Below, piece by piece: positions 1,634-21,081 of a stretch of DNA of 64,000 nucleotides. The translations under genes and the position numbers were made by a program. Source of the DNA: Spirochaetia bacterium (lineage in GTDB: Bacteria > Spirochaetota > Spirochaetia > SZUA-6 > Bin103); NCBI GenBank assembly GCA_965203515.1, contig OZ241907.1, forward strand, positions 1,714,578 through 1,778,577, read 5' to 3'. Under the pieces are notes generated by a model that worked only from the letters and a program-made list of their open reading frames with translations, did not search any database and had not been told where the DNA came from. How positions within the stretch are numbered: the first letter of the stretch is position 1; each line of letters begins with the position of its first letter.

Positions 1634-3696
1634 GCACGGCGCGCATACGGTTTTCCGCCGACATCCTGCGCCGACTGGGCGAGGAATTGAATCCCCATCT
1701 GGACAAGGGGATCGTGGAGCTGGTCAAGAACTCCTACGACGCGGACGCGACCTGGTGCCGCATCGAGATGAGCGGAACAGGCGGCGCCGGCGGCACCATC
1801 ATCGTTACCGACAACGGCGACGGCATGACGCCGGCCGAGATCGAACGGGGGTGGCTGGTGCTCGGCAGATCCACCAAGAATGCGGCGCGACGTACGCGGC
1901 TGGGGCGCATCCCGGCCGGCAGCAAAGGTTTGGGGCGGCTGGCGGCCCTACGTATGGGATCGCACGCGCTGCTGAGCACCAGACCGCGGAAGCAGCCTGC
2001 GGACGAGTATCGGCTACCGATCGACTGGCGTGCGTTCGATGCCACGGATCTGGTCGATGACGTAGCGCTGAATATCGACCATGCCCCGAGGTCACCGGAC
2101 TCCGGCCCGGGAACCGAGATCAGGATCAAAGGACTGCGCAAGCGGATACAGCGCATGGAGGTCAAGCGTCTAGCGCGCGAGTTGATCCTGCTTGCTGATC
2201 CGTTCGGCGACGATCCTGCCGGGTTCGCGCCCACGCTGATCGCACCCGACTTCAATGACTTGGCCGGGCTGGTGAGGAATCGATACTTCGATGATGCCGA
2301 GTACCATCTGGCCGCCGGCGTCGACGAGACCGGCCGCGCAACCGCGGCGGTGGTCGACTGGAAGGGCCAGCTCCTGTTCAGCGCCGGCCATGACGAAATC
2401 GCCGCGGCTGACGAACGCCGGCCCTACCACTGTCCCGCGGTCCGTTTCGATCTTTGGGTCTTCATTCTGAATCGCGCCACCTTTTCCACGAGAATCAGCA
2501 CCCTGAAAGAAGTCCGTCAATGGTTGGGTGAGTTCGGCGGCGTGCACGTCTATCACAATGGGCTGCGGGTGATGCCGTACGGCAACCCCGGCAACGACTG
2601 GTTGGAGATGAACCTGCAGCGCGTGCGTAGCCCAGAAGAACGTCCGGGAACGAATACCTCCATCGGCCGCATCGTGGTGACCGATACCGATGCGCGGCTC
2701 GTCCAGAAGACCGACCGCTCCGGGTACGTCGAGGACGAAGCGTTTACCGATCTGGTGCGATTCGCCCAGGAGGCCATGGAGTGGATGGCCGACCGGCGGC
2801 TGGAGACAGCGGAGCGGCGCCGCGCCACGGCGCGCGGCATCGCCTCGAACAGGTCACGCGAGGCGCAACGAGCGTTGCGAACGGCCATCGACCAAGTTCC
2901 GCTTTCAGATCGCGAGCCCCTGGAGGCCGCATTCAAGCAGTATGATCGTTCACGAGACCAGGAGGCGGATACCTTGCGCAAGGAGGTGCAGTTGTATCGG
3001 ACGTTGAGTACGGCGGGCATCACCGCAGCGACCTTTGCGCACGAGTCGAGCGGCAATCCGATCAAGGTGATAAGGCAGTCGGTCGACGCGCTCGCGCGCC
3101 GCGCCGGTGAGATGCTAGGCGACCGGTACGAGCCTCTGTTGAGCCGACCGGTGACCGGTATTCAACGAGCCGTCCGCAGCCTTGCCGTTCTGGGAAACGC
3201 CACGCTGAAGCTGCTCGACCACGACAAACGCCGGTTATCGAGAGTCGATCTGCATGACGTCGTACGTGAGGTCGTAGACACGTTCAGACCATTCCTCAAT
3301 GGAAGAAACGTGGCGACCACCGTGTGCCTGTGTTCAGGTGATCCCTACGTCCGCGGCAGTCGGGCAGCGATCGAATCGATCGTCACCAACCTGCTCAACA
3401 ACAGCCTCACCGCGTTCGAAAACGCCGGCACGATGGAACGAAGGATCGAGCTTACCACCTCGATCGAAGATGGTCGTTGGCGGCTGGCGGTGTCCGACAA
3501 CGGTCCGGGGATCACCGACATTAGTACGCGCGACATCTGGCTGCCCGGCCGCACTACGCGCAAGAACGGCACCGGACTGGGACTGACGATCGTCCGGGAT
3601 GCGGTCCGGGACCTCGACGGCGACGTCGATGCCCATGAGCACGGTGGCCTGGGCGGCGCCGAAATCATCGTAGAGATACCGATTCTGGGAGGCTGA
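1630..3696 (+). CDS. dual GHKL-ATPase protein: N-terminal MORC/Hsp90-like Bergerat ATPase + candidate H-box + C-terminal histidine-kinase HATPase_c
   Basis: ATG 1630 overlaps the upstream stop (ATGA). N-terminal domain motifs: ELVKNSYDADAT (N-box), VTDNGDGMT (G1), GSKGLGRLAA (G2). Mid region: ATFAHESSGNP (H-box-like). C-terminal domain motifs: IVTNLLNNSLTAF (N-box), VSDNGPGI (G1), GTGLGLTIV (G2). No TM segments. Confidence 0.6.
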   Translation: MSTARIRFSADILRRLGEELNPHLDKGIVELVKNSYDADATWCRIEMSGTGGAGGTIIVTDNGDGMTPAEIERGWLVLGRSTKNAARRTRLGRIPAGSKGLGRLAALRMGSHALLSTRPRKQPADEYRLPIDWRAFDATDLVDDVALNIDHAPRSPDSGPGTEIRIKGLRKRIQRMEVKRLARELILLADPFGDDPAGFAPTLIAPDFNDLAGLVRNRYFDDAEYHLAAGVDETGRATAAVVDWKGQLLFSAGHDEIAAADERRPYHCPAVRFDLWVFILNRATFSTRISTLKEVRQWLGEFGGVHVYHNGLRVMPYGNPGNDWLEMNLQRVRSPEERPGTNTSIGRIVVTDTDARLVQKTDRSGYVEDEAFTDLVRFAQEAMEWMADRRLETAERRRATARGIASNRSREAQRALRTAIDQVPLSDREPLEAAFKQYDRSRDQEADTLRKEVQLYRTLSTAGITAATFAHESSGNPIKVIRQSVDALARRAGEMLGDRYEPLLSRPVTGIQRAVRSLAVLGNATLKLLDHDKRRLSRVDLHDVVREVVDTFRPFLNGRNVATTVCLCSGDPYVRGSRAAIESIVTNLLNNSLTAFENAGTMERRIELTTSIEDGRWRLAVSDNGPGITDISTRDIWLPGRTTRKNGTGLGLTIVRDAVRDLDGDVDAHEHGGLGGAEIIVEIPILGG

Positions 3697-9878: not shown

Positions 9879-10931
9879 ATGGCATTCGAGTCACGAGTCT
9901 ACGCCCTGCGTATCGAGCCGCACCCCAACGCCGACCGCCTGGAGCTGGCGGCGATCGGCGGCTTCCGTTGCGTCGTCGGCAAGGACAGCTACGTCGACGG
10001 CGACCTGGCCGCGTACATCCCGGAAGGGGCGGTCTGTCCCGAATGGCTGATCGCGGAGCTGGGGCTGGAAGGCAAGCTGGCCGGCAGCAAGAAGAACCGC
10101 GTCAAGGCGGTGCAGCTCCGCGGCGCGCTTTCGCAGGGGTTGGTCTATCCGGTCCGCGACGGGATGATCCGCGGGCGGCAGGTCGCCGAAGGGGACGAAG
10201 TCACCGAGCTGCTGGAGCTGGTCAAGTACGAACCGCCGATCCCGATCTCCATGCAGGGCGAGGTGCGGTCCGCGCACGGCGCCACCCTCCACTACGACAT
10301 CGAGGACTTCAAGAAATACCCGGAGGAGTTCCGGGACGGGGACCCGGTGATGGTCACGGAGAAGCTGCACGGCACGTGGTGCTGCCTGGGCTGGCACGCC
10401 GACCACGGCCCGATCGTCACCTCCAAGGGTATGTCGGACAAGGGCATGGCGCTGCTGATCGACGACGCGAACAAGACCAATCTGTACGTGCGCACGTGGC
10501 GCGCGCATCAGGAGGCGTTCGAGTCGGCGCGCGCCCGCCTTGCCGGCGACGGCCGGCCGTTCTACGTCCTGGGCGAGGTGTACGGCCGCGGCGTGCAGGA
10601 CCTCCATTACGGGGAGCCCAACCCGGCGTTCCGGGTGTTCGATGCGTACCTGGGCGAACCGGGAACCGGCCGCTACCTGAACCCGGAGGAACTGGCGGAA
10701 TCGCTGAGCGATCTGTTTCCGCTGGTGCCGGAGCTCTATCGCGGCCCGTTCAGCCTGGCGAAGCTGCAGGAGCTCACCGACGGCGCCACCACGCTCGGCG
10801 GCGGCCACGTACGCGAAGGCGTGGTCGTGAGGCCGGCCATGGAGCGCGTGTCGCACGCCTGCGGACGGGTGATCCTGAAGAGCGTCTCCGGCAAGTACCT
10901 GACGCGCAAGGGCGGCACGGAGTTCAACTGA
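9879..10931 (+). CDS. RNA ligase family protein (Rnl2/PF09414-like nucleotidyltransferase, motif I KLHGT) with N-terminal tRNA-binding-like OB domain
   Basis: EKLHGTWC matches the KxHG adenylylation motif (T4 Rnl2 KIHGTN). The N-terminus MAFESRVYALRIEPHPNADRLELAAIGGFRCVVG resembles the CsaA/EMAP-type OB fold seen in DraRnl-like ligases. Confidence 0.5.
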   Translation: MAFESRVYALRIEPHPNADRLELAAIGGFRCVVGKDSYVDGDLAAYIPEGAVCPEWLIAELGLEGKLAGSKKNRVKAVQLRGALSQGLVYPVRDGMIRGRQVAEGDEVTELLELVKYEPPIPISMQGEVRSAHGATLHYDIEDFKKYPEEFRDGDPVMVTEKLHGTWCCLGWHADHGPIVTSKGMSDKGMALLIDDANKTNLYVRTWRAHQEAFESARARLAGDGRPFYVLGEVYGRGVQDLHYGEPNPAFRVFDAYLGEPGTGRYLNPEELAESLSDLFPLVPELYRGPFSLAKLQELTDGATTLGGGHVREGVVVRPAMERVSHACGRVILKSVSGKYLTRKGGTEFN

Positions 10932-10955: not shown

Positions 10956-12104
10956 TTACGACGCCTCGCCGGCGAGGCGCCGGATCAGGTCCGGGAGGCT
11001 GACGAAGCGGACGCTGAAACCCGGAAAGTCACGCACCCAGGAGCGTTCCGTGTCCGCAGTCACGACGTAGTTGGCGCCGGTGGGATAGCGGGCGCGGAAG
11101 GCGCGCAGGTTCCGGGGATCGAATCCGCCGGCGCGCCACTTGCACTCCACGGTCACCGGGGGCGCGGCGCGATCGTCGATCACGAAGTCGATCTCATGGC
11201 CGCGCTTGTCGCGCCAGTAGCAAAGCCGACGCCGTTGCAGGCGTCCGAGGTATTCGTTGAGCACGCAGTGCTCCCACAGGGAGCCGCGATCCTCGTCGCG
11301 CAGCCGGTTCCAGCCCATGAACAGGCTGACGAAGCCGGTATCGAAGCCGTAGACCTTGGGCGTCGCCACGATCTCCGTCGCGCGGCGCGTGCTGAAGGGC
11401 CGAACGATCTGCACGACGTGGGTATCTTCGAGCACCTGCAGATAGTTGACGATGGTGGCGCGGCTCACCTCGCACGAGGCGGCGTACCTGGTCGCCTCGA
11501 ACAACCCGCCGCTGGCGGCGAACAACAACTCCACGAAGCGCAGGAAGGACCAGCGCCGTTGCAGCCGGAAGTGCTCCTGGATGTCCCGCGCCCAGTAGGA
11601 GTCGATCCAGTCCTGAAACCCGCGCTCCGGAAACTCGGAAGCAAGGAAGAAGGGGGGCAGCCCGCCGTGCAGAAAGCGGTGATCGATGCCGCGCGGGCCG
11701 AACTCGTGCTCGTCCTGGAGCAGCATCGGCGTCATCCACAGATCGCGCTTGCGGTCGGTGAGCGTATCCCGAAATCGGCGCGACGCTCCCAGTGACGAGG
11801 AGCCGGTAGCGACGATCTGCGTATCGGGATGGTAATCCGCCGCGATCTTCAGCAGCTCGGACGGATTGGGCAGACGGTGTATCTCGTCCAGCACGACCCG
11901 CCGCGCACCGACGTCACGCAGGAAGCTCTCAGGGGACTCCAGCGCGCGGCGGGTGCTCGGCAGTTCGCAGTCGAGGTACTCGACGTCCGGCAGAGACTGA
12001 CACAGGACCGTCTTGCCGGCGCGGCGGACCCCCGACAGCCAGACGACCGACTTCTCGCGCCACAGCTTCTCTACGGCCGCGATCCAGTAGCTTCTCCGTA
12101 CCAT
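10956..12104 (-). CDS. AAA+ ATPase with DUF4143 (AAA_14 family), paralog 1
   Basis: GVRRAGKT Walker A, VVLDEIHRLPN Walker B. Paralogous to the gene at 42406..43734. Confidence 0.7.
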   Translation of the reverse strand: MVRRSYWIAAVEKLWREKSVVWLSGVRRAGKTVLCQSLPDVEYLDCELPSTRRALESPESFLRDVGARRVVLDEIHRLPNPSELLKIAADYHPDTQIVATGSSSLGASRRFRDTLTDRKRDLWMTPMLLQDEHEFGPRGIDHRFLHGGLPPFFLASEFPERGFQDWIDSYWARDIQEHFRLQRRWSFLRFVELLFAASGGLFEATRYAASCEVSRATIVNYLQVLEDTHVVQIVRPFSTRRATEIVATPKVYGFDTGFVSLFMGWNRLRDEDRGSLWEHCVLNEYLGRLQRRRLCYWRDKRGHEIDFVIDDRAAPPVTVECKWRAGGFDPRNLRAFRARYPTGANYVVTADTERSWVRDFPGFSVRFVSLPDLIRRLAGEAS

Positions 12105-12222: not shown

Positions 12223-13254
12223 TCAGCGCTCCCGATCTGACGCGTGGGTCTGTCGGCGGAGCAACTCGAACGCCTGCTGGCCGATGCCGGTAGCCTGCTC
12301 GATGATCGACCACTCGACGCCGGCGCGCAGAAAACTCTCGATGGTGGCCACCTGGCCTTCCTGGCGGCCCTCCTGGCGGCCTTCCTGGCGGCCCTCCTGG
12401 CGGCCTTCCTGACGGCCTTCCTGACGGCCTTCCTGACGGCCTTTCAGCACGCCTTCCTGGATCAACTGCTCCCCATACGTCTTCATATCCCCTCCTGGTC
12501 CCCGTACTTCCCGCCGCAGCGCCGCGCCGAACTCCCGCAACCTCTCATCATCCTGCGTGCGGAGCACGTACAACACCACCACCGCGAACCGTTCGCTCTG
12601 TCCCGCCCGGTCCAACTCTCCCATGAGCTGCACCGCCGTCTCCAGCGCCGCCCTCACCTCGCGGCGCGCCGCCGCCATCAGCGCAAGCTGTGCTATCCGG
12701 CCCAGCGTTTCGCCCTGTACCGCTCCCACCCCCATCTGCGACTGGTCCACCAGCAGGTGCTCGAACTGCGGCGTCCAGGGCCACCCTCTGACCGATTCCG
12801 CAAACAAGTCGCTGAACTGAGCCGCATGTCGCCAGTGGGACTCACCCTGATAGAACACCACCGGCACGATCGGCGGCAAGTCCGGCGTCTCCCCTGCTTC
12901 GTCAGAGCGCAAGAAATCATCCCAGATGCGGCAGCAGTACTTCAGCAGCCGGAAGCGCATCAATCGATCCGGCCTCGATTGGTGCTCGAACAGCAGATAG
13001 AGCCGCAGCGAACGCCGCGCGTCACCCGGCTCGGCGGCGCCCGGTCGCTGCTCGATGGCATACAGCAGGTCGGACTCGCTGGCGCGCAGGTCGTCGTCCA
13101 CATAGCTGTCGGGCATCAGCGTCAGGCTGGCCCAGTCCAGCGTACCGGCGAGCCACGACGGCACGTGGGCGCGCAGCAAGCCAGCCGCTTCGGCCGGCTC
13201 GGAGAACACCTTGCGAAACAGATGGTCGTGCGGCTGGTGCAGATCGCGTGTCAT
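12223..13254 (-). CDS. Rpn/YhgA-family recombination-promoting nuclease / putative transposase (PD-(D/E)XK), copy 1
   Basis: Start ATG 13252-13254 (MTRDLHQPHDHLFRKVF...). LYLLFEHQSRPDR and LLKYCCRIW are family motifs. C-terminal QEGR tandem repeat. Paralog at 58974..59933. Confidence 0.7.
   Translation of the reverse strand: MTRDLHQPHDHLFRKVFSEPAEAAGLLRAHVPSWLAGTLDWASLTLMPDSYVDDDLRASESDLLYAIEQRPGAAEPGDARRSLRLYLLFEHQSRPDRLMRFRLLKYCCRIWDDFLRSDEAGETPDLPPIVPVVFYQGESHWRHAAQFSDLFAESVRGWPWTPQFEHLLVDQSQMGVGAVQGETLGRIAQLALMAAARREVRAALETAVQLMGELDRAGQSERFAVVVLYVLRTQDDERLREFGAALRREVRGPGGDMKTYGEQLIQEGVLKGRQEGRQEGRQEGRQEGRQEGRQEGRQEGQVATIESFLRAGVEWSIIEQATGIGQQAFELLRRQTHASDRER
12354..12437. repeat. 12-nt tandem repeat GGCC(T/C)TCCTG(G/A)C x7 (encodes (RQEG)n on the minus strand)
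   Basis: Seven consecutive 12-nt units read directly from the sequence, inside the Rpn copy-1 coding region. Confidence 0.85.
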
Positions 13255-13343
13255 GCGTGGTGCCGCGCAGCATAGCATGGATCGAACGGACGCCGAAGCG
13301 CAAGTATCTTCGCCGGCAAGCGGCCGTCTGTGGCGCCGGCGCG

Positions 13344-14070
13344 TCATGCCCTGCGAGCGACGAGAATATAGCCAAAGACCAGACTGTCGACGCGCAGGAC
13401 CCGGCACGCAGGGGACTCGTTCAGATGATCCAGCACCACTCGCCAATCGAAGCCGAGGTGCGGCCCCCAGCCGTCGGCGTCCGGGTCCCGAAACACGGAG
13501 ATCGATTGGCCCGTGAGCAGGTGCCACACGTAGCGGGATTCGCTCTGATCGCGGAAGAAGCTCTCGTACGGCCTCCTTCGGAATACCTTCCTCGCACCGT
13601 ACTTGAGCAATCCGGGCAAGCCGATCTCGTTCGGCACCGAGATGAGCAGCGTGCCGCCGGGCTTGCACGAGGCGAGCAGCGTGTCGATAGCATTCGGGAC
13701 GTTGCCTACGTGCTCCAACGTCTCGAAGCAGGTGACGACGTCGAACAGACGCTCCCCGGGGGGGGGGGGGGGGGGGGGCGTTGAGATCGACGTAATCGAA
13801 CACGGCGTTGTCGATGTTGCGAGCCTTCGCCGCGGCCAGCAGATCGGACGAGTGATCGAAGCCGAACAGGCACATCGAACCGGCTTCGGGCAGCGCTCGC
13901 AACAGTTCTGCGAAGAAGAATGCGTTGGAGCACCCGAAGTCGGCGACGGCCGCCCGTACCGGTAACGAGAGCGAGCGCATGGTCTCGACGACCCGGCGCA
14001 GTCGGGCACGATGGAAGAAGCTGAACGGATGAAGTCCCTTGTAGGAGCTTTCGTGTACGACCACCGCCAT
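13344..14070 (-). pseudogene. class I SAM-dependent methyltransferase, frameshifted at a poly-C (poly-G on + strand) tract
   Basis: N-terminal part (VADFGCSNAFFFAELL motif I) is in the frame of track ORF 12223..14070. C-terminal part (FDVVTCFETLEHVGNVPNAIDTLLASCKPGGTLLISVPNE) is in the frame of ORF 13344..14117. The switch is at the 21-G run 13758-13778, which encodes poly-Pro in both frames. Confidence 0.6.
13758..13778. repeat. 21-nt G homopolymer inside a coding sequence
   Basis: Direct count: g at 13758-13778. Confidence 0.9.
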
Positions 14071-14074
14071 GATC

Positions 14075-15730
14075 CTACGATGAGTCCACCTTTCGCGAAA
14101 GATCGGAAGTGAGGCACTCCACCAGGGAGATGGCTGACAGTACGACGGCGGCCGCGAAACCGACGGTGACCTGATCGCCCGATAGGTGCTGACCGTAGTT
14201 ACCGACCGAATGCAGATGGTTCACTATGAGGCTGGTAGTTCTGGTGACATACGTGCTCTGGCGTTGGGCGCGCTCAGAGCCGGTTATGAGCCGCAGTATC
14301 CGGCACTCCCGGCCTGGGGAGTCGTGAGGAATCTTGCCTCGTTCGTCCGGCAGCCTCTCGATTCCTGCGTGCTTCCATTCGTCGAGCCATGCATCGGGTA
14401 GACGGCGGTCAGGTGGGAGCTCGGCGGTCCAGATCAGATGCAGCGCCCGATTGGCAATGCTCCTGATCCAGACGAGTGCACTCTCTGGAGCCGGGACGAG
14501 GTCGCGGATCGCCAAGCGCACGTAGTCGCAAAGGTCACTGTCCACGGATCCCTGCGACACTTGGTCGAGGCGCAGCTCAAGCAGCATCTGAACATGCGTC
14601 TCGAATTTGGCGGCCGTGCCCAGAAGACGGGTCAGGTCGGCAATGGCGGGTGCCTGATCCTGAGCGTAGCGCTGCATCAGGCGACAGGAACTGCGCAGTC
14701 GGTTCCTCGACTGTTGGCCGAACCCTCGCTCCTCCAGTGCTTGCCGCCGCGGCTGAGACAGCTCGGCCAGCGGTATTTCGTCGGCAGTCAGCGCGCCGAG
14801 ATCAGCACGCAATTCGCTGTCGCAATCATCCCACAATGCGTCGAGGAGCTGGCGCGGCCCGTCCAGCACCGCTTCCGCAGCATGATCTATTTCCGATTTG
14901 GAAAGACGTTGTCCGCGGTGTCCGGCCCACAGCCTCTGCAGGAGCGCGCAAACGAGCAAAGGCACCCTTCCTGTCCAGTTGGCTATCTCCTTCCGCACCG
15001 ACTCGTCCAACTCGCAGCCGGCGTCACGGAGCGGCTGCAGGAACGCTTCCAGATCACGGTCGTCGAGCGCGGCCACGCGCACCGGCGTATCGTAGAATAT
15101 CCCCCAGAAGTCCGAGGTCCGCGACTCCTCCGTCTTGCACAGCTCGCGCAACGGCCGCCGGCTGCCGGTGACCAGTCGCAGACTGGTCCTCTGCGCCAGC
15201 GCGCGCAGTTGGTCCCACAGGTTCCGCGTCAACCCGGTACCGGCAAGCGCATAGTCGAAGCCATCGAGCACCGCGAGCAGGCGCACGCCGTCCTTTTCGA
15301 GTTGGTCGAATATGATGCCCAGCACCTCATGCCTGGAAACTTCTTCGAAGTCGTCGAAATACCCCACAAGGTCTGGACAGACCCCCTGCAACGCCGCCTT
15401 GATCTCGTCCGCAAACCGCCGCATGAATTCGTGGTCCGAGGCCGGTACCCCGCGGCGGAGATCGACGTACGCAGCGGTGACATACTGCTCGACCCCGTCC
15501 CGGTAGGTGGCGGCGGCATGGTGCAGCAGGACGGACTTTCCGTAGTGCGCCGGCCCCACGACCGACACGTGATCCGGCGACGGTTTCCGCAGGTGCTTGT
15601 CGATGCGGCTCATGAGCGCTGCGCGGCCCAGCATGGGGGGGACCGAAGGTCCCAGGACTTGGTACGGGTCAGGGTCAGGCATGGCGTATGGCCTCCTGGC
15701 GGGCGCGCTCCACGAGGTCGTCGAAGTCAA
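14075..15730 (-). CDS. STAND-like P-loop NTPase (Arch_ATPase/AAA_16-like) with C-terminal helical domain
   Basis: VSVVGPAHYGKSVLL Walker A, RLLAVLDGFD Walker B, LVTGSRRPL sensor-like. Resembles the ATPase module at the C-terminus of the upstream giant gene. 4-nt gap to the downstream SAM-MTase. Confidence 0.55.
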   Translation of the reverse strand: MTSTTSWSAPARRPYAMPDPDPYQVLGPSVPPMLGRAALMSRIDKHLRKPSPDHVSVVGPAHYGKSVLLHHAAATYRDGVEQYVTAAYVDLRRGVPASDHEFMRRFADEIKAALQGVCPDLVGYFDDFEEVSRHEVLGIIFDQLEKDGVRLLAVLDGFDYALAGTGLTRNLWDQLRALAQRTSLRLVTGSRRPLRELCKTEESRTSDFWGIFYDTPVRVAALDDRDLEAFLQPLRDAGCELDESVRKEIANWTGRVPLLVCALLQRLWAGHRGQRLSKSEIDHAAEAVLDGPRQLLDALWDDCDSELRADLGALTADEIPLAELSQPRRQALEERGFGQQSRNRLRSSCRLMQRYAQDQAPAIADLTRLLGTAAKFETHVQMLLELRLDQVSQGSVDSDLCDYVRLAIRDLVPAPESALVWIRSIANRALHLIWTAELPPDRRLPDAWLDEWKHAGIERLPDERGKIPHDSPGRECRILRLITGSERAQRQSTYVTRTTSLIVNHLHSVGNYGQHLSGDQVTVGFAAAVVLSAISLVECLTSDLSRKVDSS

Positions 15731-18700
15731 CGTTCATCCGCAGCCAGTCGGCCATCAACGGGATGGCCAGTCGGTACGTGACCCCGCGGTTGGATTGGTC
15801 GATCTCGAGCAGCTCCAGTTCACGGAGCTCGGTAATGTCGTCAGCGAGAGCTTCGTCATCCCGGACCGGTACACGATATTCCTCGAATTTCAGGCCGATG
15901 AGATCGCGGTTGAAGGCGTCCGGGGCGTCCGCCATACGGTCGCTGAGCGCCAGTATCAGTCTGCGCCGTTCGCTGCCGGCGTAGCCCCACAGGGTCTGGA
16001 AGTGCTCGTTGTCCCGCACCATCTCGGTTGCGGCCCGGTCCACGAGGTCACCCGTGATGATTCGTTCGCTCCCCGCGGCGGCCTGGTCGAACACCCGGCT
16101 GCAGAGCGACTGGATGAGAAACGGATGGCGCGAGCACAGTGCTACCAGCTGGTCACGCGCCTGTGGCAGGTAGCGGATTCGACGCGCGACCGGTTCGGTG
16201 ACCAGCCGCCGGGCTTCCTCCTCCGGCAGCGCACTGACCCCGATCCGGTGGCCGAACCCGAACAGCGCCGACCAGTACTCTTCGCGCAGCCGCTTCAGCC
16301 TGCGGGAGCCGGTGAGGATCGCGCCCAGACCGGATTGGTGCTGCAACAGGTGACGAATGTTCTCGGGGACCTGCTGACTGGTAATACCGCCGTCGATACC
16401 ATCCTGGAGCTTGTCGAACTCGTCGAGCATGAGCAGGACCCGGCGCCGGCGCGGCTTGGCGGCCTCGATCGCCGTCGACAGGTACAACGCCAACGTCTCG
16501 TAGGGGTGATCGTCGGAGAACGCGCCGCGCAATGCGGCGAGGAAGGCCAACTTGAACGGTCGCCCCGACTCCGGGGCCGGCGCATCAGGAATCCAGGTTT
16601 CGATGCCGGCGTCGGCAAGGGCAATACCCGTCTGCCTCGCCAACAGCCTGAACACGTTGGACGTGGACATGCTGTCCATATCCTGGAACGAGCAGTAGAC
16701 GGGAACCCATCCGGGAAGCGCTTCCTCTTTCCGCAACTGCTGCAGGATCGACGTCTTGCCGGTACGCCGATTCCCTTCCAGCAGGATCACGTTGGCCTGC
16801 TCACCGCCGAGATGGCGCCTGATCTGATCCATGATGCCGTCGCGGCCGAAGAACATTTCGGCCCGGTCCACCGGAGGCCCGACGATGTAGGGACTGGCGT
16901 CGAGGTCGCCGGTAGCGGCGGCCTCATTGCCGGAGCGGACCGGCACGGAGACCTTCGTCCGGCCCTCTACGGGCGTGGCGTCGAGGCGGCGCGCCTGCCA
17001 CGCCACGTCGATATCCAGCGGCTGCGTATCGTCTTGCGCCCGGACGACAAGCGGAATCTCATGCCGCTGACCTTCGGCCAAGTAGGGCACTTCTCTCACT
17101 AACGTACGATCGGCCTGACTCACTAACGTGAGATCGGCCTGCCGCACGGTCACCCGCACCTTGCTCAGCGGCACCGGCGACAGGTTGGCAACCCGAAGCC
17201 GCACCTCAGCGACGGTGCCGGCCAGCACTTCCGCGGGTACGGTGATGTCGAGCCTGCCTCTGCGCTGCATGGCGTGGGCCTCATCCTCGACGAGACCCAC
17301 CAGCCCCCAAGTAACAGAACGCAGGCGCTCACCGAGCGGATCTTCGGCCCGGTCGAGGACGCCAAGCGCCTCGCGCAACTTCGCCACAGCGAATTCGAGA
17401 ACCACCAGGCGGCCTGCGCCTTCAGGAACCGAATCGAGATAGTCCAAGGAGGCAGCCGCCCTCCTCGCCGCCTCCAGCCATCTGTCGATCGCACCATCGC
17501 CGGCCGTCGGTGCGGCTGGGGGAGTATCGAGCGATCGTATCTCCGCCGCGAGCTTTGCAAGCATATCTATGCCGCGCGCGCCGTCAGAACGGCGCCCTGC
17601 CGCCAGACTCGCCGCAAGAGGTCCTTCCAGCCAGAGGGCGACCGGATGCCGCGCCATCCCGGAGAGCAGGCGGAAGAGCACGGCCAGCGCGTCTCCGCGC
17701 AGCTCGCCAAGTTCCTTGAGCACGGCATCCTGCACCGAGACAGGCGGCACCGGAACTTTCAACGCGCGGAGCACGGGAATCGACAGATGACGAATCGTCG
17801 ATCCGGTGGCGTGACCCGACAACCAGAACCAATACGCGGGTGAGCGCAACAGGGCGGCCAGGAATCGCGGCTTGACGATCCCTTCGTGCACGCGAACGAA
17901 CGCGATGGTCTCGTCGGCCATCACCTCATACTCGTGCTCGTGCTCGTTTTCCTCAACCAGAAAGATGCTGCCTACGTTGTCCGTCATCGGGACGAGCAGG
18001 TCGCCGCCACGAAGATATGCCCGTGGGTCAGGGTTACCCAACAACGAGCTGAAATCGAAGGGCCAGGTCTGCGGCCGGCGAATACGCACATCCGTCACGT
18101 CGGCGGAGCGGAGCAGATTCGGCTCGGGTGCGTCAAAAAAATCGTTTTCCACCCCAGGAAACACCTCTGCGACCTCGTCCAGACTTTTCACCTTCAGAGA
18201 AGGGTCTGCCTTGACGAGCCGCTCGATCTCGGCGTCCAGCCGCTCGCTTCCCGACTTCTTGGCGATCAACTCGTAGTCGCGGAGCGTGAGTTCGCGCACG
18301 GGGGCGGACCATGACTCGACACCCGGCGAAGCGTAACTCGCAGACGCCTGGCGGTGATCCCCGATCATCTCGGCGACGCCCCGCGCATCTTCCTGGGCCG
18401 CCTGCCATGCCATCGGTGAGACGGTCAGAAACCGTACGGCGTCACGCGGTTCATCGCGGGAAAACACGATAACGCTCATGGATATACCGGTGAACGGCTC
18501 GAACGAGCCGGCCGGAAGCGCGATCACATCCTGCACGCGGTATTCCGAAAGAAGCGCCTTCCTCAGAGGCAAGGAATCGGCATGGAACAGCGGCCGCTCC
18601 GGTAACGCGACTACGGCTCGTCCGCCGGGCCGCATGTTGGCCATCACGTGCTGCAGGAACAGCTCTTCGACGCGATAGCTGGGAAACCGGAAGCTATCGT

Positions 18701-19553
18701 CTTCGTCGTATAACTCGTCTTCGTCGCTCCACGGCGGGGAGGCGACGACGCAGTCGAAGACCGCCTCCGATCCGTCACTCGGCACTGCCTTTTTCAGCGC
18801 GTTACCGTACTCCAGCCCCGGGGGTTCGACCCCGGCCAACAACAGTCGGCACAGTGTGATAAGGTACGCGCGTTCCGCGACTTCGACGCCGGAAACCGCA
18901 GCCGGTCCGACATTCGATCGCGGTGATGACGGAAGCGCCGCGTTCAGCCGGCGCGATGCCCCAGCGAGCAGTTCCCCAAAGCCGAAGCACGGATCATAGA
19001 CGCTTTCACCGGGTTTGAGGTCGGCCAGATCCAGCATGAGATCGGCGACCGGCGCAGGCGTGATGAACTGGCCCAGGCGATCCGCGTGCCGTTTCACCAT
19101 GAACCGCAACGCGTCGTCGAATACACCCGTCGCACGCCGGCGCCCTTCCGACGTGCTCAAATCGAGAGCGAACAACCAGTCGATTACCCGACGCATCTCG
19201 GCGCCGGTAGAAGTTCTCAATATCACATTCGTCGCTAAATCGGAAAATCCATAAAAATCTTCGTCGATAAGATATCGATCTTGCATCCGAAACAGCCCGG
19301 CATCGACACGCTTCGCCGCCAGTATGGCATCCGACTTTGGGGGCCTCTTCCATCTCTTTTTCTCGACCAATTCATCTATATCATCGCCTGAATCGATCTG
19401 GCCTTCGGTATCGTCCGAACCGGCGTATCCGATGAACAGTCCGGCCAGCCCCCACACTGCGCTCACAGGATGCTTCCACTCTTCGATCAGCGTCCGCAGG
19501 TCGGAACGCACCTGTTCCAAGGCTGCTTGTTCGTGCTTCCCGTCATGGTTCAT
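15675..19553 (-). CDS. 1292-aa fusion protein: HsdM-like N6-adenine MTase + HsdS-like TRD + uncharacterised middle + C-terminal STAND/Arch_ATPase-like NTPase
   Basis: GQFITPAPVADLM (motif X), YDPCFGFGELL (motif I), FDCVVASPPW (motif IV variant). HLSIPVLRALKVPVPPVSVQDAVLKEL is an S-subunit TRD signature. C-terminal PYIVGPPVDRAEMFFGRDGI...VILLEGNRRTGKTSIL (Walker A), RRVLLMLDEFDKL (Walker B), ILTGSRRL. Overlaps the downstream NTPase gene by 56 nt. Confidence 0.6.
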   Translation of the reverse strand: MNHDGKHEQAALEQVRSDLRTLIEEWKHPVSAVWGLAGLFIGYAGSDDTEGQIDSGDDIDELVEKKRWKRPPKSDAILAAKRVDAGLFRMQDRYLIDEDFYGFSDLATNVILRTSTGAEMRRVIDWLFALDLSTSEGRRRATGVFDDALRFMVKRHADRLGQFITPAPVADLMLDLADLKPGESVYDPCFGFGELLAGASRRLNAALPSSPRSNVGPAAVSGVEVAERAYLITLCRLLLAGVEPPGLEYGNALKKAVPSDGSEAVFDCVVASPPWSDEDELYDEDDSFRFPSYRVEELFLQHVMANMRPGGRAVVALPERPLFHADSLPLRKALLSEYRVQDVIALPAGSFEPFTGISMSVIVFSRDEPRDAVRFLTVSPMAWQAAQEDARGVAEMIGDHRQASASYASPGVESWSAPVRELTLRDYELIAKKSGSERLDAEIERLVKADPSLKVKSLDEVAEVFPGVENDFFDAPEPNLLRSADVTDVRIRRPQTWPFDFSSLLGNPDPRAYLRGGDLLVPMTDNVGSIFLVEENEHEHEYEVMADETIAFVRVHEGIVKPRFLAALLRSPAYWFWLSGHATGSTIRHLSIPVLRALKVPVPPVSVQDAVLKELGELRGDALAVLFRLLSGMARHPVALWLEGPLAASLAAGRRSDGARGIDMLAKLAAEIRSLDTPPAAPTAGDGAIDRWLEAARRAAASLDYLDSVPEGAGRLVVLEFAVAKLREALGVLDRAEDPLGERLRSVTWGLVGLVEDEAHAMQRRGRLDITVPAEVLAGTVAEVRLRVANLSPVPLSKVRVTVRQADLTLVSQADRTLVREVPYLAEGQRHEIPLVVRAQDDTQPLDIDVAWQARRLDATPVEGRTKVSVPVRSGNEAAATGDLDASPYIVGPPVDRAEMFFGRDGIMDQIRRHLGGEQANVILLEGNRRTGKTSILQQLRKEEALPGWVPVYCSFQDMDSMSTSNVFRLLARQTGIALADAGIETWIPDAPAPESGRPFKLAFLAALRGAFSDDHPYETLALYLSTAIEAAKPRRRRVLLMLDEFDKLQDGIDGGITSQQVPENIRHLLQHQSGLGAILTGSRRLKRLREEYWSALFGFGHRIGVSALPEEEARRLVTEPVARRIRYLPQARDQLVALCSRHPFLIQSLCSRVFDQAAAGSERIITGDLVDRAATEMVRDNEHFQTLWGYAGSERRRLILALSDRMADAPDAFNRDLIGLKFEEYRVPVRDDEALADDITELRELELLEIDQSNRGVTYRLAIPLMADWLRMNVDFDDLVERARQEAIRHA

Positions 19554-19567
19554 GGCTATACCGTACG

Positions 19568-19583
19568 TAGCAGAAACCGTGCC
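19568..19583 (-). promoter_or_regulatory. sigma-54 (-24/-12) promoter TGGCACGGTTTCTGCT
   Basis: Minus-strand sequence matches TGGCACG-N4-TTGCW with GG and GC at canonical spacing. It lies 15 nt upstream of the giant ORF start (19553) and 2 nt downstream of the RtcR-like stop (19585-19587). Confidence 0.5.
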
Positions 19584-19584
19584 A

Positions 19585-21081
<1,497 letters not shown>

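Follow-up and report, generated by a model that had tools for sequence, protein, structure and literature searches.

Does a long homopolymer inside a gene of an uncultured spirochaete switch that gene on and off, or does it reflect an error of sequencing and assembly? The question is raised by a stretch of 64,000 nucleotides from the genome of a Spirochaetia bacterium (hereafter, the window), which has a GC content of 68% and is part of a single contig of 4,135,234 bp. The window contains a run of G residues inside a gene encoding a small methyltransferase dependent on S-adenosylmethionine (SAM). The first-pass annotation of the window had described a perfect run of 21 G in this gene, and re-examination of positions 13758–13778 found exactly 21 consecutive G. 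Elsewhere in the 64 kb, homopolymers reach 7 nt at most, and about 2e-5 runs of at least 21 nt would be expected by chance under a model of independent and identically distributed bases with the composition of the window. As set out below, comparison with related alleles makes it probable that G21 is a genuine hypermutable repeat and that the methyltransferase gene is a contingency (phase-variable) locus.

The G21 tract and the reading frame of the methyltransferase gene

The gene is read from the minus strand, where the tract appears as C21 (coordinates are given in Table 2). The reading frame switches exactly across the tract, between the part encoding the SAM-binding motif I and the part encoding TCFETLEH and HLGFDW, and the tract encodes polyproline in every frame. 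Both properties had been noted in the first-pass annotation. The consequences of a change in tract length were followed in silico for lengths from 18 to 24. An intact protein of 241 amino acids (aa) is obtained with 20 G and one of 242 aa with 23 G; in general, lengths of the 3n+2 class (17, 20, 23) give a full-length enzyme of 240–242 aa with 5–7 prolines in a surface loop. Tracts of 19 or 22 G (3n+1) lead to a stop at about codon 120, and lengths of 18, 21 or 24 (3n) to a stop-free frame entering the downstream Rpn-like gene. The earlier suggestion that a change of one nucleotide in either direction would restore a protein of about 240 aa is therefore right for the loss of one G (20 G, 241 aa) and wrong for the gain of one (22 G, truncation), while the gain of two (23 G) restores the frame as well.

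The requirements for a switch of this kind are a hypermutable repeat inside an open reading frame (ORF) and a change of repeat number that toggles between full-length and disrupted products. The tract lies within the ORF and is much longer than the mutable range of 7–9 nt for G/C tracts (PMC6321876); the toggling is found in the window and likewise in the related alleles L034, L038 and L041, described below. The state recorded in the assembly is OFF, perhaps an evenly balanced call with a length uncertain by 1–2 nt. The state of the source genome is not firm, because no platform is free of miscalls in long homopolymers and the tract of the close relative L020 was left unresolved by its assembly.

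In the 21-G state, the N-terminal frame of the methyltransferase is joined in frame to the Rpn-like gene in an ORF of 615 aa (12223–14070, minus strand). Beyond the tract, this frame has no stop for about 170 codons, which span the remainder of the gene and the intergenic gap. Such a read-through fusion was considered as a designed product and rejected, since the frame is out of phase with the Rpn-like gene in L031 and L037; the read-through ORF looks incidental.

Tracts in related alleles

Independent contigs were fetched using the DUF4143 ATPase gene of the window (Table 2) as an anchor. The compared loci and proteins are labelled L0xx and P0xxx, respectively; L020, L034, L035, L037–L041 and others come from other samples or genomes, and L001 and L002 are chromosomes of metagenome-assembled genomes (MAGs). 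In the genome scan, the nearest named chromosomes are designated "MAG: Spirochaetia bacterium" and show an identity of 75–83%. All tract lengths and frame states were read from consensus assemblies, and ON and OFF alleles were called solely by frame analysis at the DNA level.

A strain from another sample, L020, matches the window with 99.0% identity along 15.8 kb and carries the same operon with its genes in unchanged order. Its contig ends inside the same tract: ...GATCTCAACG is followed by 36 C and then by 8 non-matching bases. At a genuine long homopolymer that the assembler is unable to span, a contig is expected to break in this way. All coding indels between the window and L020 are multiples of three, and no frameshifting coding indel was found; the window assembly is therefore not generally prone to indels.

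Alleles with G/C tracts of 7–20 nt were found in at least eight other samples or genomes, at one of two places in the gene: the position of the tract in the window (site 2) or a second position closer to the start codon (site 1), which is free of a tract in the window (Table 1). Several of these alleles are in frame, with polyglycine of varying length as the product of the tract. The length of the tract differs between near relatives, as in the pairs L034/L038 (98.4% identical), L002/L041 (96.4%) and L001/L018 (97.1%). In all four of the other out-of-frame alleles (L034, L035, L038 and L041), the frame is broken exactly at the tract, and a single change of length in the out-of-frame alleles yields a complete ORF. 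After correction of the tract, the OFF alleles contain no other stop or frameshift, and the ratio of nonsynonymous to synonymous substitution rates (dN/dS) against ON alleles is 0.13–0.38, which is indicative of purifying selection on the OFF alleles. Taken together, length varies among close strains, ON and OFF states both occur, and the gene is otherwise intact. The contig of L040 ends 25 nt before site 1.

Table 1. Tracts and frame states in methyltransferase alleles
Allele	Site and tract	Frame state
Window	site 2, C21	out of frame
L020	site 2, C36 or more	contig ends in tract
L001 (MAG chromosome)	site 2, G10	in frame
L018, L019	site 2, G7	in frame
L034, L035	site 1, G12	out of frame
L038	site 1, G16	out of frame
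L039	site 1, G20	contig ends just after tract
L037 / P0213	site 1, G7AG15	in frame, 243 aa
P0214	site 1, two Gly shorter than P0213, protein otherwise identical	in frame, 241 aa
P0209	site 1, short Gly run	in frame
L002 (MAG chromosome)	site 1, G15	in frame
L041	site 1, G10	out of frame

Gene calls of 174 aa starting at Met66 were also considered as evidence of OFF states and were dropped, as L002 is in frame by translation and yet is recorded as 174 aa. Two further alleles deserve mention. The L004 orthologue carries an extra A at about 10060–10075 (CGCAAACATC versus CGCAACATC), a frameshift independent of both tract sites that could be a true lesion or an error of long-read sequencing. In P0027, which belongs to a lineage with about 71% identity, the N-terminal part corresponds to the +1 frame of ...ARSRNLANAIFDYVDLN and rejoins the usual frame at PPPQQDRRHT; P0239, from the same cluster, is intact and reads RPPPQDRHTSS. 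P0027 thus resembles an allele with a frameshift at site 2 and may represent an additional OFF allele in a third lineage.

Specificity of the tracts

The fetched loci of the Spirochaetia clade (247 kb) contain 11 G/C runs of at least 9 nt, nine of which lie in the methyltransferase gene. If the C21 of the window is counted, the figure is 10 of 12 runs in about 311 kb. No G/C run of at least 9 nt was found in 513 kb of sequence with distant homologues, of which 332 kb came from 80 JGI loci and 181 kb from 12 genome loci. The tracts are specific to this clade and gene.

A run outside the methyltransferase gene is found in L001, where C22 at 1882–1903 makes up codons 6–12 of an ORF (1868–2296, plus strand) resembling a lipoprotein with a lipobox (MKPHY-P7-ARRVRKLFLSLAVVVAISMTVGC...). 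Judging from this placement, the lipoprotein-like gene is a candidate for a second phase-variable surface gene in the clade. The same locus has a C9 run at 2604.

The methyltransferase: family, fold and likely role

The Pfam profiles were compared with a reconstruction of the methyltransferase with 20 G. The score is 54.2 bits for Methyltransf_23, which has a cut-off of 27, and Methyltransf_12, Methyltransf_11, Methyltransf_31 and Methyltransf_25 likewise score above their Pfam cut-offs; the NCBIfam and PDB sequence searches yielded just weak similarity of the UbiG/Coq3 type. The AlphaFold (AF2) model, built with 30 homologues, has a predicted local distance difference test score (pLDDT) of 88 and a predicted template modelling score (pTM) of 0.87 and consists of alternating beta and alpha elements. 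The best Foldseek matches, with a probability of 1.0, are Rv2258c, NovO, CouO, CysG, RebM and ChlM, so the closest solved folds are those of small-molecule and natural-product methyltransferases. By its profile matches and its Rossmann-like fold with motif I, the protein belongs to the class I SAM-dependent methyltransferases.

No DNA methyltransferase family, be it N6_Mtase, MethyltransfD12, N4 or C5, was matched in Pfam or NCBIfam, and no DNA methyltransferase motif of the (D/N/S)PP(Y/F/W) or PCQ kind was found; the region of motif IV reads TCFETLEH. A lone PADLOC match to "mad2" (27.5 bits) spans the generic SAM-binding core only. A phasevarion, i.e. a phase-variable DNA methyltransferase, was considered and rejected on the grounds of family and fold.

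Homologues are numerous (161 matches), and where their context can be read, their neighbours are often glycosyltransferases, sugar-modifying enzymes and polysaccharide-export genes. The methyltransferase gene is preceded by DegT and GT1 genes in L016, by GNVR and Poly_export/SLBB genes in L001 and by a DegT gene upstream in L004; several GT4 genes accompany it in L017, GT4 genes flank it on both sides in L005, and GT4 and epimerase genes are found in L015 and a GT2 gene in L014. Because of these polysaccharide-type contexts and the absence of a match to a DNA methyltransferase family, the family is most plausibly one of glycan or small-molecule O-methyltransferases.

Both tract sites are loops in the AlphaFold model. 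Site 2 corresponds to the loop of residues 94–108, in which the pLDDT reaches its internal minimum, and few stretches of the family alignment are less conserved than this site.

Origin of the tract and alternative explanations

In the proposed mechanism, slipped-strand mispairing during replication would add or remove G:C pairs at high frequency, as is established for repeats of this kind. Tract lengths of 3n+2 would correspond to the ON state and lengths of 3n+1 and 3n to the OFF state, and a population would be a mixture of methylating and non-methylating cells. Such tracts would have evolved repeatedly in the lineage, in two loops where the Rossmann fold tolerates them, giving polyglycine at site 1 and polyproline or polyglycine at site 2. 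The contingency locus is preferred because the tracts lie in a conserved accessory gene, occupy tolerant loops, and vary in length and frame between near-identical strains.

Several observations weigh against it. The closest syntenic orthologue, which is encoded by L031 (a circular contig of 4.1 Mb, about 95% identical), has no tract: its gene is intact and encodes 237 aa, and site 2 has the ordinary sequence GAA CCG CCT CGC ACG CGC. The tract is therefore recent, having replaced an 18-nt G/C-rich loop, and is not conserved. The first-pass annotation had named intact orthologues without a homopolymer as evidence against a switch; taken literally, L031 is such an orthologue, and the conclusion is overturned by the other alleles. 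As the sequences are consensus assemblies, the differences in length between samples could in principle be fixed differences between strains. The tracts of 16–36 nt are much longer than the functional tracts of 7–13 nt typical of Campylobacter (PMC6321876). Whatever the platform, assemblies do not give reliable lengths for such runs, and individual ON and OFF calls may be off by 1–2 nt. Finally, a run of 6–7 prolines hampers translation and needs elongation factor P (EF-P), so the "ON" protein may be poorly made.

The tract may be real and the frameshift not. The true modal length would then be 20 or 23, miscalled by 1–2 nt, and the gene would be mostly ON. This is somewhat unlikely. In its favour, the single 4.14-Mb contig suggests a long-read assembly, the main residual error of which is homopolymer length, the L020 tract ends as C36 followed by noise, and related alleles with long tracts (L002, L037) are in frame. 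Against a miscall, frameshifting indels are absent elsewhere in the comparison with an independent assembly, and OFF states are common in this gene, as other assemblies contain four alleles with the frame broken at the tract. A miscall would concern the recorded state only and is compatible with a hypermutable tract. It is a different matter if the tract itself is absent from the genome, being poly-G of two-colour chemistry or a chimeric join. The first-pass annotation had left an artefact standing as an equal alternative, but the comparative data, with tracts of 7–20 nt in both frame states, favour a contingency switch and make an artefact extremely improbable. An artefact would be irreproducible and placed regardless of gene structure; here, a tract recurs at the same site in a strain diverging by 1% and taken from another sample, and two fixed codon positions carry tracts across three allele lineages, in scaffold-level assemblies as well as in chromosome-scale contigs, the MAG chromosomes L001 and L002 included. 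Both flanks of the tract are perfectly collinear with the orthologues, the tract taking the place of the 18-nt loop. Poly-G is indeed a known artefact of some Illumina chemistries, L031 has ordinary sequence at the site, and the L020 contig ends in a run with non-matching bases after it; that run, however, is poly-C on the strand reading in and not the poly-G tail of the artefact.

Neutral runaway expansion would be a further source of such tracts: G/C-rich loops would drift to homopolymers, and the frameshift would be the first step of pseudogenisation, without adaptive switching. The loop sequences CCG CCT CGC ACG CGC and CCG GCA CGG GCG GCC would be prone to homopolymer mutation, and tracts are not conserved, since L031, L016 and L017 have none. 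The gene is accessory, moving between polysaccharide clusters and the NTPase-gene context seen here; it lies in a lower-GC island beside the Rpn-like gene and other genes of mobile or defence type, and its L004 counterpart has the unrelated 1-nt frameshift described above. However, equally G/C-rich flanking genes in the roughly 311 kb of clade sequence have almost no tracts. The repeated origin of tracts in the methyltransferase is confined to two loops that tolerate them structurally. Several alleles keep long tracts in frame, and the OFF alleles combine low dN/dS with the lack of a second lesion. A run of 21 nt would, moreover, slip at high frequency whatever the selection, which makes switching mechanistic. 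Decay is thus quite unlikely. It is very improbable that the frame is rescued at the level of RNA or the ribosome, by polymerase slippage or by frameshifting on the proline codons, with the tract serving as an attenuator of expression. Transcriptional slippage is established mainly for A/T runs of at least 9, and a run of 21 nt might be long enough to give heterogeneous transcripts, but no sequence observation requires such a rescue, there is no conserved stimulatory structure, and polymorphism of length between strains with both frames represented is the prediction of slippage at the DNA level.

Comparison with known phase-variable systems

The contingency locus proposed here has its closest counterparts in Campylobacter, where genes for SAM-dependent methyltransferases and for glycan modification carry poly-G tracts and belong to the core set of phase-variable loci. 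The phasome of this genus includes UbiE_3, Cj0170 and UbiG-like methyltransferases as well as capsule, lipooligosaccharide (LOS) and flagellar glycan genes, and is driven by G/C tracts of 7–13 nt, mostly 9–10, lengths of 13–15 being rare (PMC6321876). The two systems share an intragenic G/C homopolymer that sets the frame, a length that varies between related strains, and a gene class, that of the small class I SAM methyltransferases, which frequently lie in glycan loci. The C22 lipoprotein-like gene of L001 would also fit a surface-oriented phasome like that of Campylobacter. The host here is an uncultured member of the Spirochaetia with about 68% GC, unlike Campylobacter, an epsilonproteobacterium with 30% GC; its tracts, known from assemblies, are mostly 10–21 nt or more in length against 9–10, and they occupy two alternative sites in one gene.

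According to PMC4365076, which cites Sumby and Smith (2003), a G tract in pglX switches the Streptomyces Pgl system at 1e-2 to 1e-4. As described in that source, Pgl of Streptomyces coelicolor, a BREX-related phage defence system, resembles the present locus in its high GC content, the G tract in a methyltransferase gene, the ATPase partners and the defence-like context. Unlike PglX, which is an N6-adenine DNA methyltransferase, the enzyme with the tract here is small and similar to UbiG and NovO, and no PglZ or BrxC-type genes were found here by PADLOC.

Phasevarions are controlled by the phase-variable Mod and HsdM DNA methyltransferases of Haemophilus, Neisseria and Helicobacter. In phasevarions, as is proposed here, slippage at a repeat turns a methyltransferase ON and OFF at random, but the enzyme of the window has neither the families nor the motifs of DNA methyltransferases, and an epigenetic switch of a regulon is not supported. 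In the spirochaete Treponema pallidum, poly-G tracts lie upstream of tpr genes and modulate their transcription. The phylum and the variable length of poly-G are shared, whereas the tract described here is intragenic, acts on the frame, and belongs to a distant, presumably free-living, high-GC lineage. In Bifidobacterium breve, another high-GC bacterium, an intragenic G-tract ON/OFF switch of pilus genes by slippage was demonstrated by deep sequencing (PMC9187656). The host differs, and the switched gene encodes a pilus protein there and a methyltransferase here.

To our knowledge, phase variation by homopolymer slippage has been documented almost entirely in host-associated pathogens. The present locus reveals no new mechanism; unusual are the host, the lengths of the tracts and the two alternative sites in one gene. 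It provides a comparative signature of a contingency locus, obtained from assemblies alone, in a free-living or environmental lineage of uncultured high-GC spirochaetes, and the tract is a ready marker for switching in metagenomic time series. The locus also calls for caution in annotation, as the gene calls of several assemblies omit or truncate it, and contigs are interrupted at the tract.

Genomic context

The methyltransferase is the last gene of a three-gene unit that begins with the gene of a large methyltransferase–NTPase fusion (Table 2). The first-pass annotation had placed it at the end of a candidate operon, which is reasonable: its ATG lies 4 nt past the stop of the upstream NTPase gene, and the next gene on the same strand starts 92 nt downstream. 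A scan found no terminator between the methyltransferase and that next gene, which encodes the Rpn-like protein. The fusion gene overlaps the NTPase gene by 8 nt and has no tract. The order fusion–NTPase–methyltransferase was found in every readable strain of the species group (L020, L031, L034, L037, L038, L039 and L040) and was not found in the more distant spirochaete MAGs.

Table 2. Coordinates of the features in the window
Feature	Position	Strand	Remarks
RtcR-like sigma-54 activator (CARF, AAA+, HTH)	19585..21081	-	Sigma54_activat 6.5e-71; RtcR_PspF2 CARF_AAA_HTH 1.7e-197
Sigma-54-type -24/-12 promoter-like element TGGCACGGTTTCTGCT	19569..19584	-	in 31-nt gap upstream of 1292-aa gene
1292-aa fusion: N6-adenine DNA methyltransferase, HsdS-like target-recognition domain, STAND-like AAA_16 NTPase	15675..19553	-	N6_Mtase 2.4e-27
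P-loop NTPase, AAA_16/AAA_22 type, otherwise unclassified	14075..15682	-	535 aa (as in L020); 551 aa from an earlier TTG
Methyltransferase gene	13344..14070	-	ATG 14070 to stop 13344, 727 nt
Methyltransferase, 5' part	13779..14070	-	ATG 14068-14070, codons 1-97, SAM-binding motif I ADFGCS
Site 1	13951..13974	-	codons 33-40 SLSLPVRA, loop before beta1/motif I; tract-free in window, G10-G20 in other alleles
Homopolymer tract, site 2	13758..13778	-	G21 on plus strand, C21 on coding strand; polyproline, beta3-beta4 loop
Methyltransferase, 3' part	13344..13757	-	in the other frame; FDVVTCFETLEH, HLGFDW; stop 13344-13346
Rpn-family (Transposase_31) gene	12223..13251	-	92 nt downstream of methyltransferase
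AAA_14/DUF4143 ATPase	10956..12104	-	PADLOC candidate PDC-S01
Rnl/PHA02142-type RNA ligase	9879..10931	+	flanks the island

In the 1292-aa protein, PADLOC recognised only the methyltransferase and target-recognition domains, by way of Type I methyltransferase and specificity models and mad2; it gave no match for the 551-aa protein, relatives of which were not found in the JGI metagenomes either. The NCBIfam MAD2 score is 32 bits, a small fraction of the cut-off of 720 bits. PADLOC detected no R subunit, PglZ or BrxC, and hence no complete known defence system of the BREX/Pgl, MADS or Type I restriction-modification kind.

The promoter-like element upstream of the fusion gene has one mismatch to the sigma-54 type and is identical in L020; a window of this size should contain about 1.3 matches of this quality, but the one described here lies where such a promoter is predicted. 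Because it sits between the RtcR-like gene and the fusion gene, it suggests that a ligand-sensing activator may drive the uncharacterised methyltransferase–NTPase operon. This RtcR-like, sigma-54-controlled unit is worth study. That it would be a signal-induced, defence-like module of a new type driven by sigma-54 and the RtcR-CARF activator, on which the tract acts as a stochastic switch, with the small methyltransferase as its functional switchable part and not a passenger, is a bolder proposal and rather unlikely.

The stretch of about 11–19.6 kb has a GC content of 61–66% against 69–73% in its flanks and is island-like. The RNA ligase gene and the DUF4143 ATPase gene flank the island; together with the RtcR-like regulator, their predicted functions hint at an RNA-repair or defence neighbourhood.

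Several smaller differences between strains were noted in the neighbouring genes. Many fragmentary contigs from other samples begin inside the Rpn-like gene, which contains an in-frame 12-nt repeat encoding QEGR (about 12364–12435, minus strand) in 3–8 copies among strains: at least six in the window, eight in L031, and three in L024 and L004. In the 1292-aa gene, a 6-nt repeat unit (His-Glu) at 17936–17941 (minus strand), within a stretch reading ENEHEHEYE, distinguishes the window from L020 as an indel.

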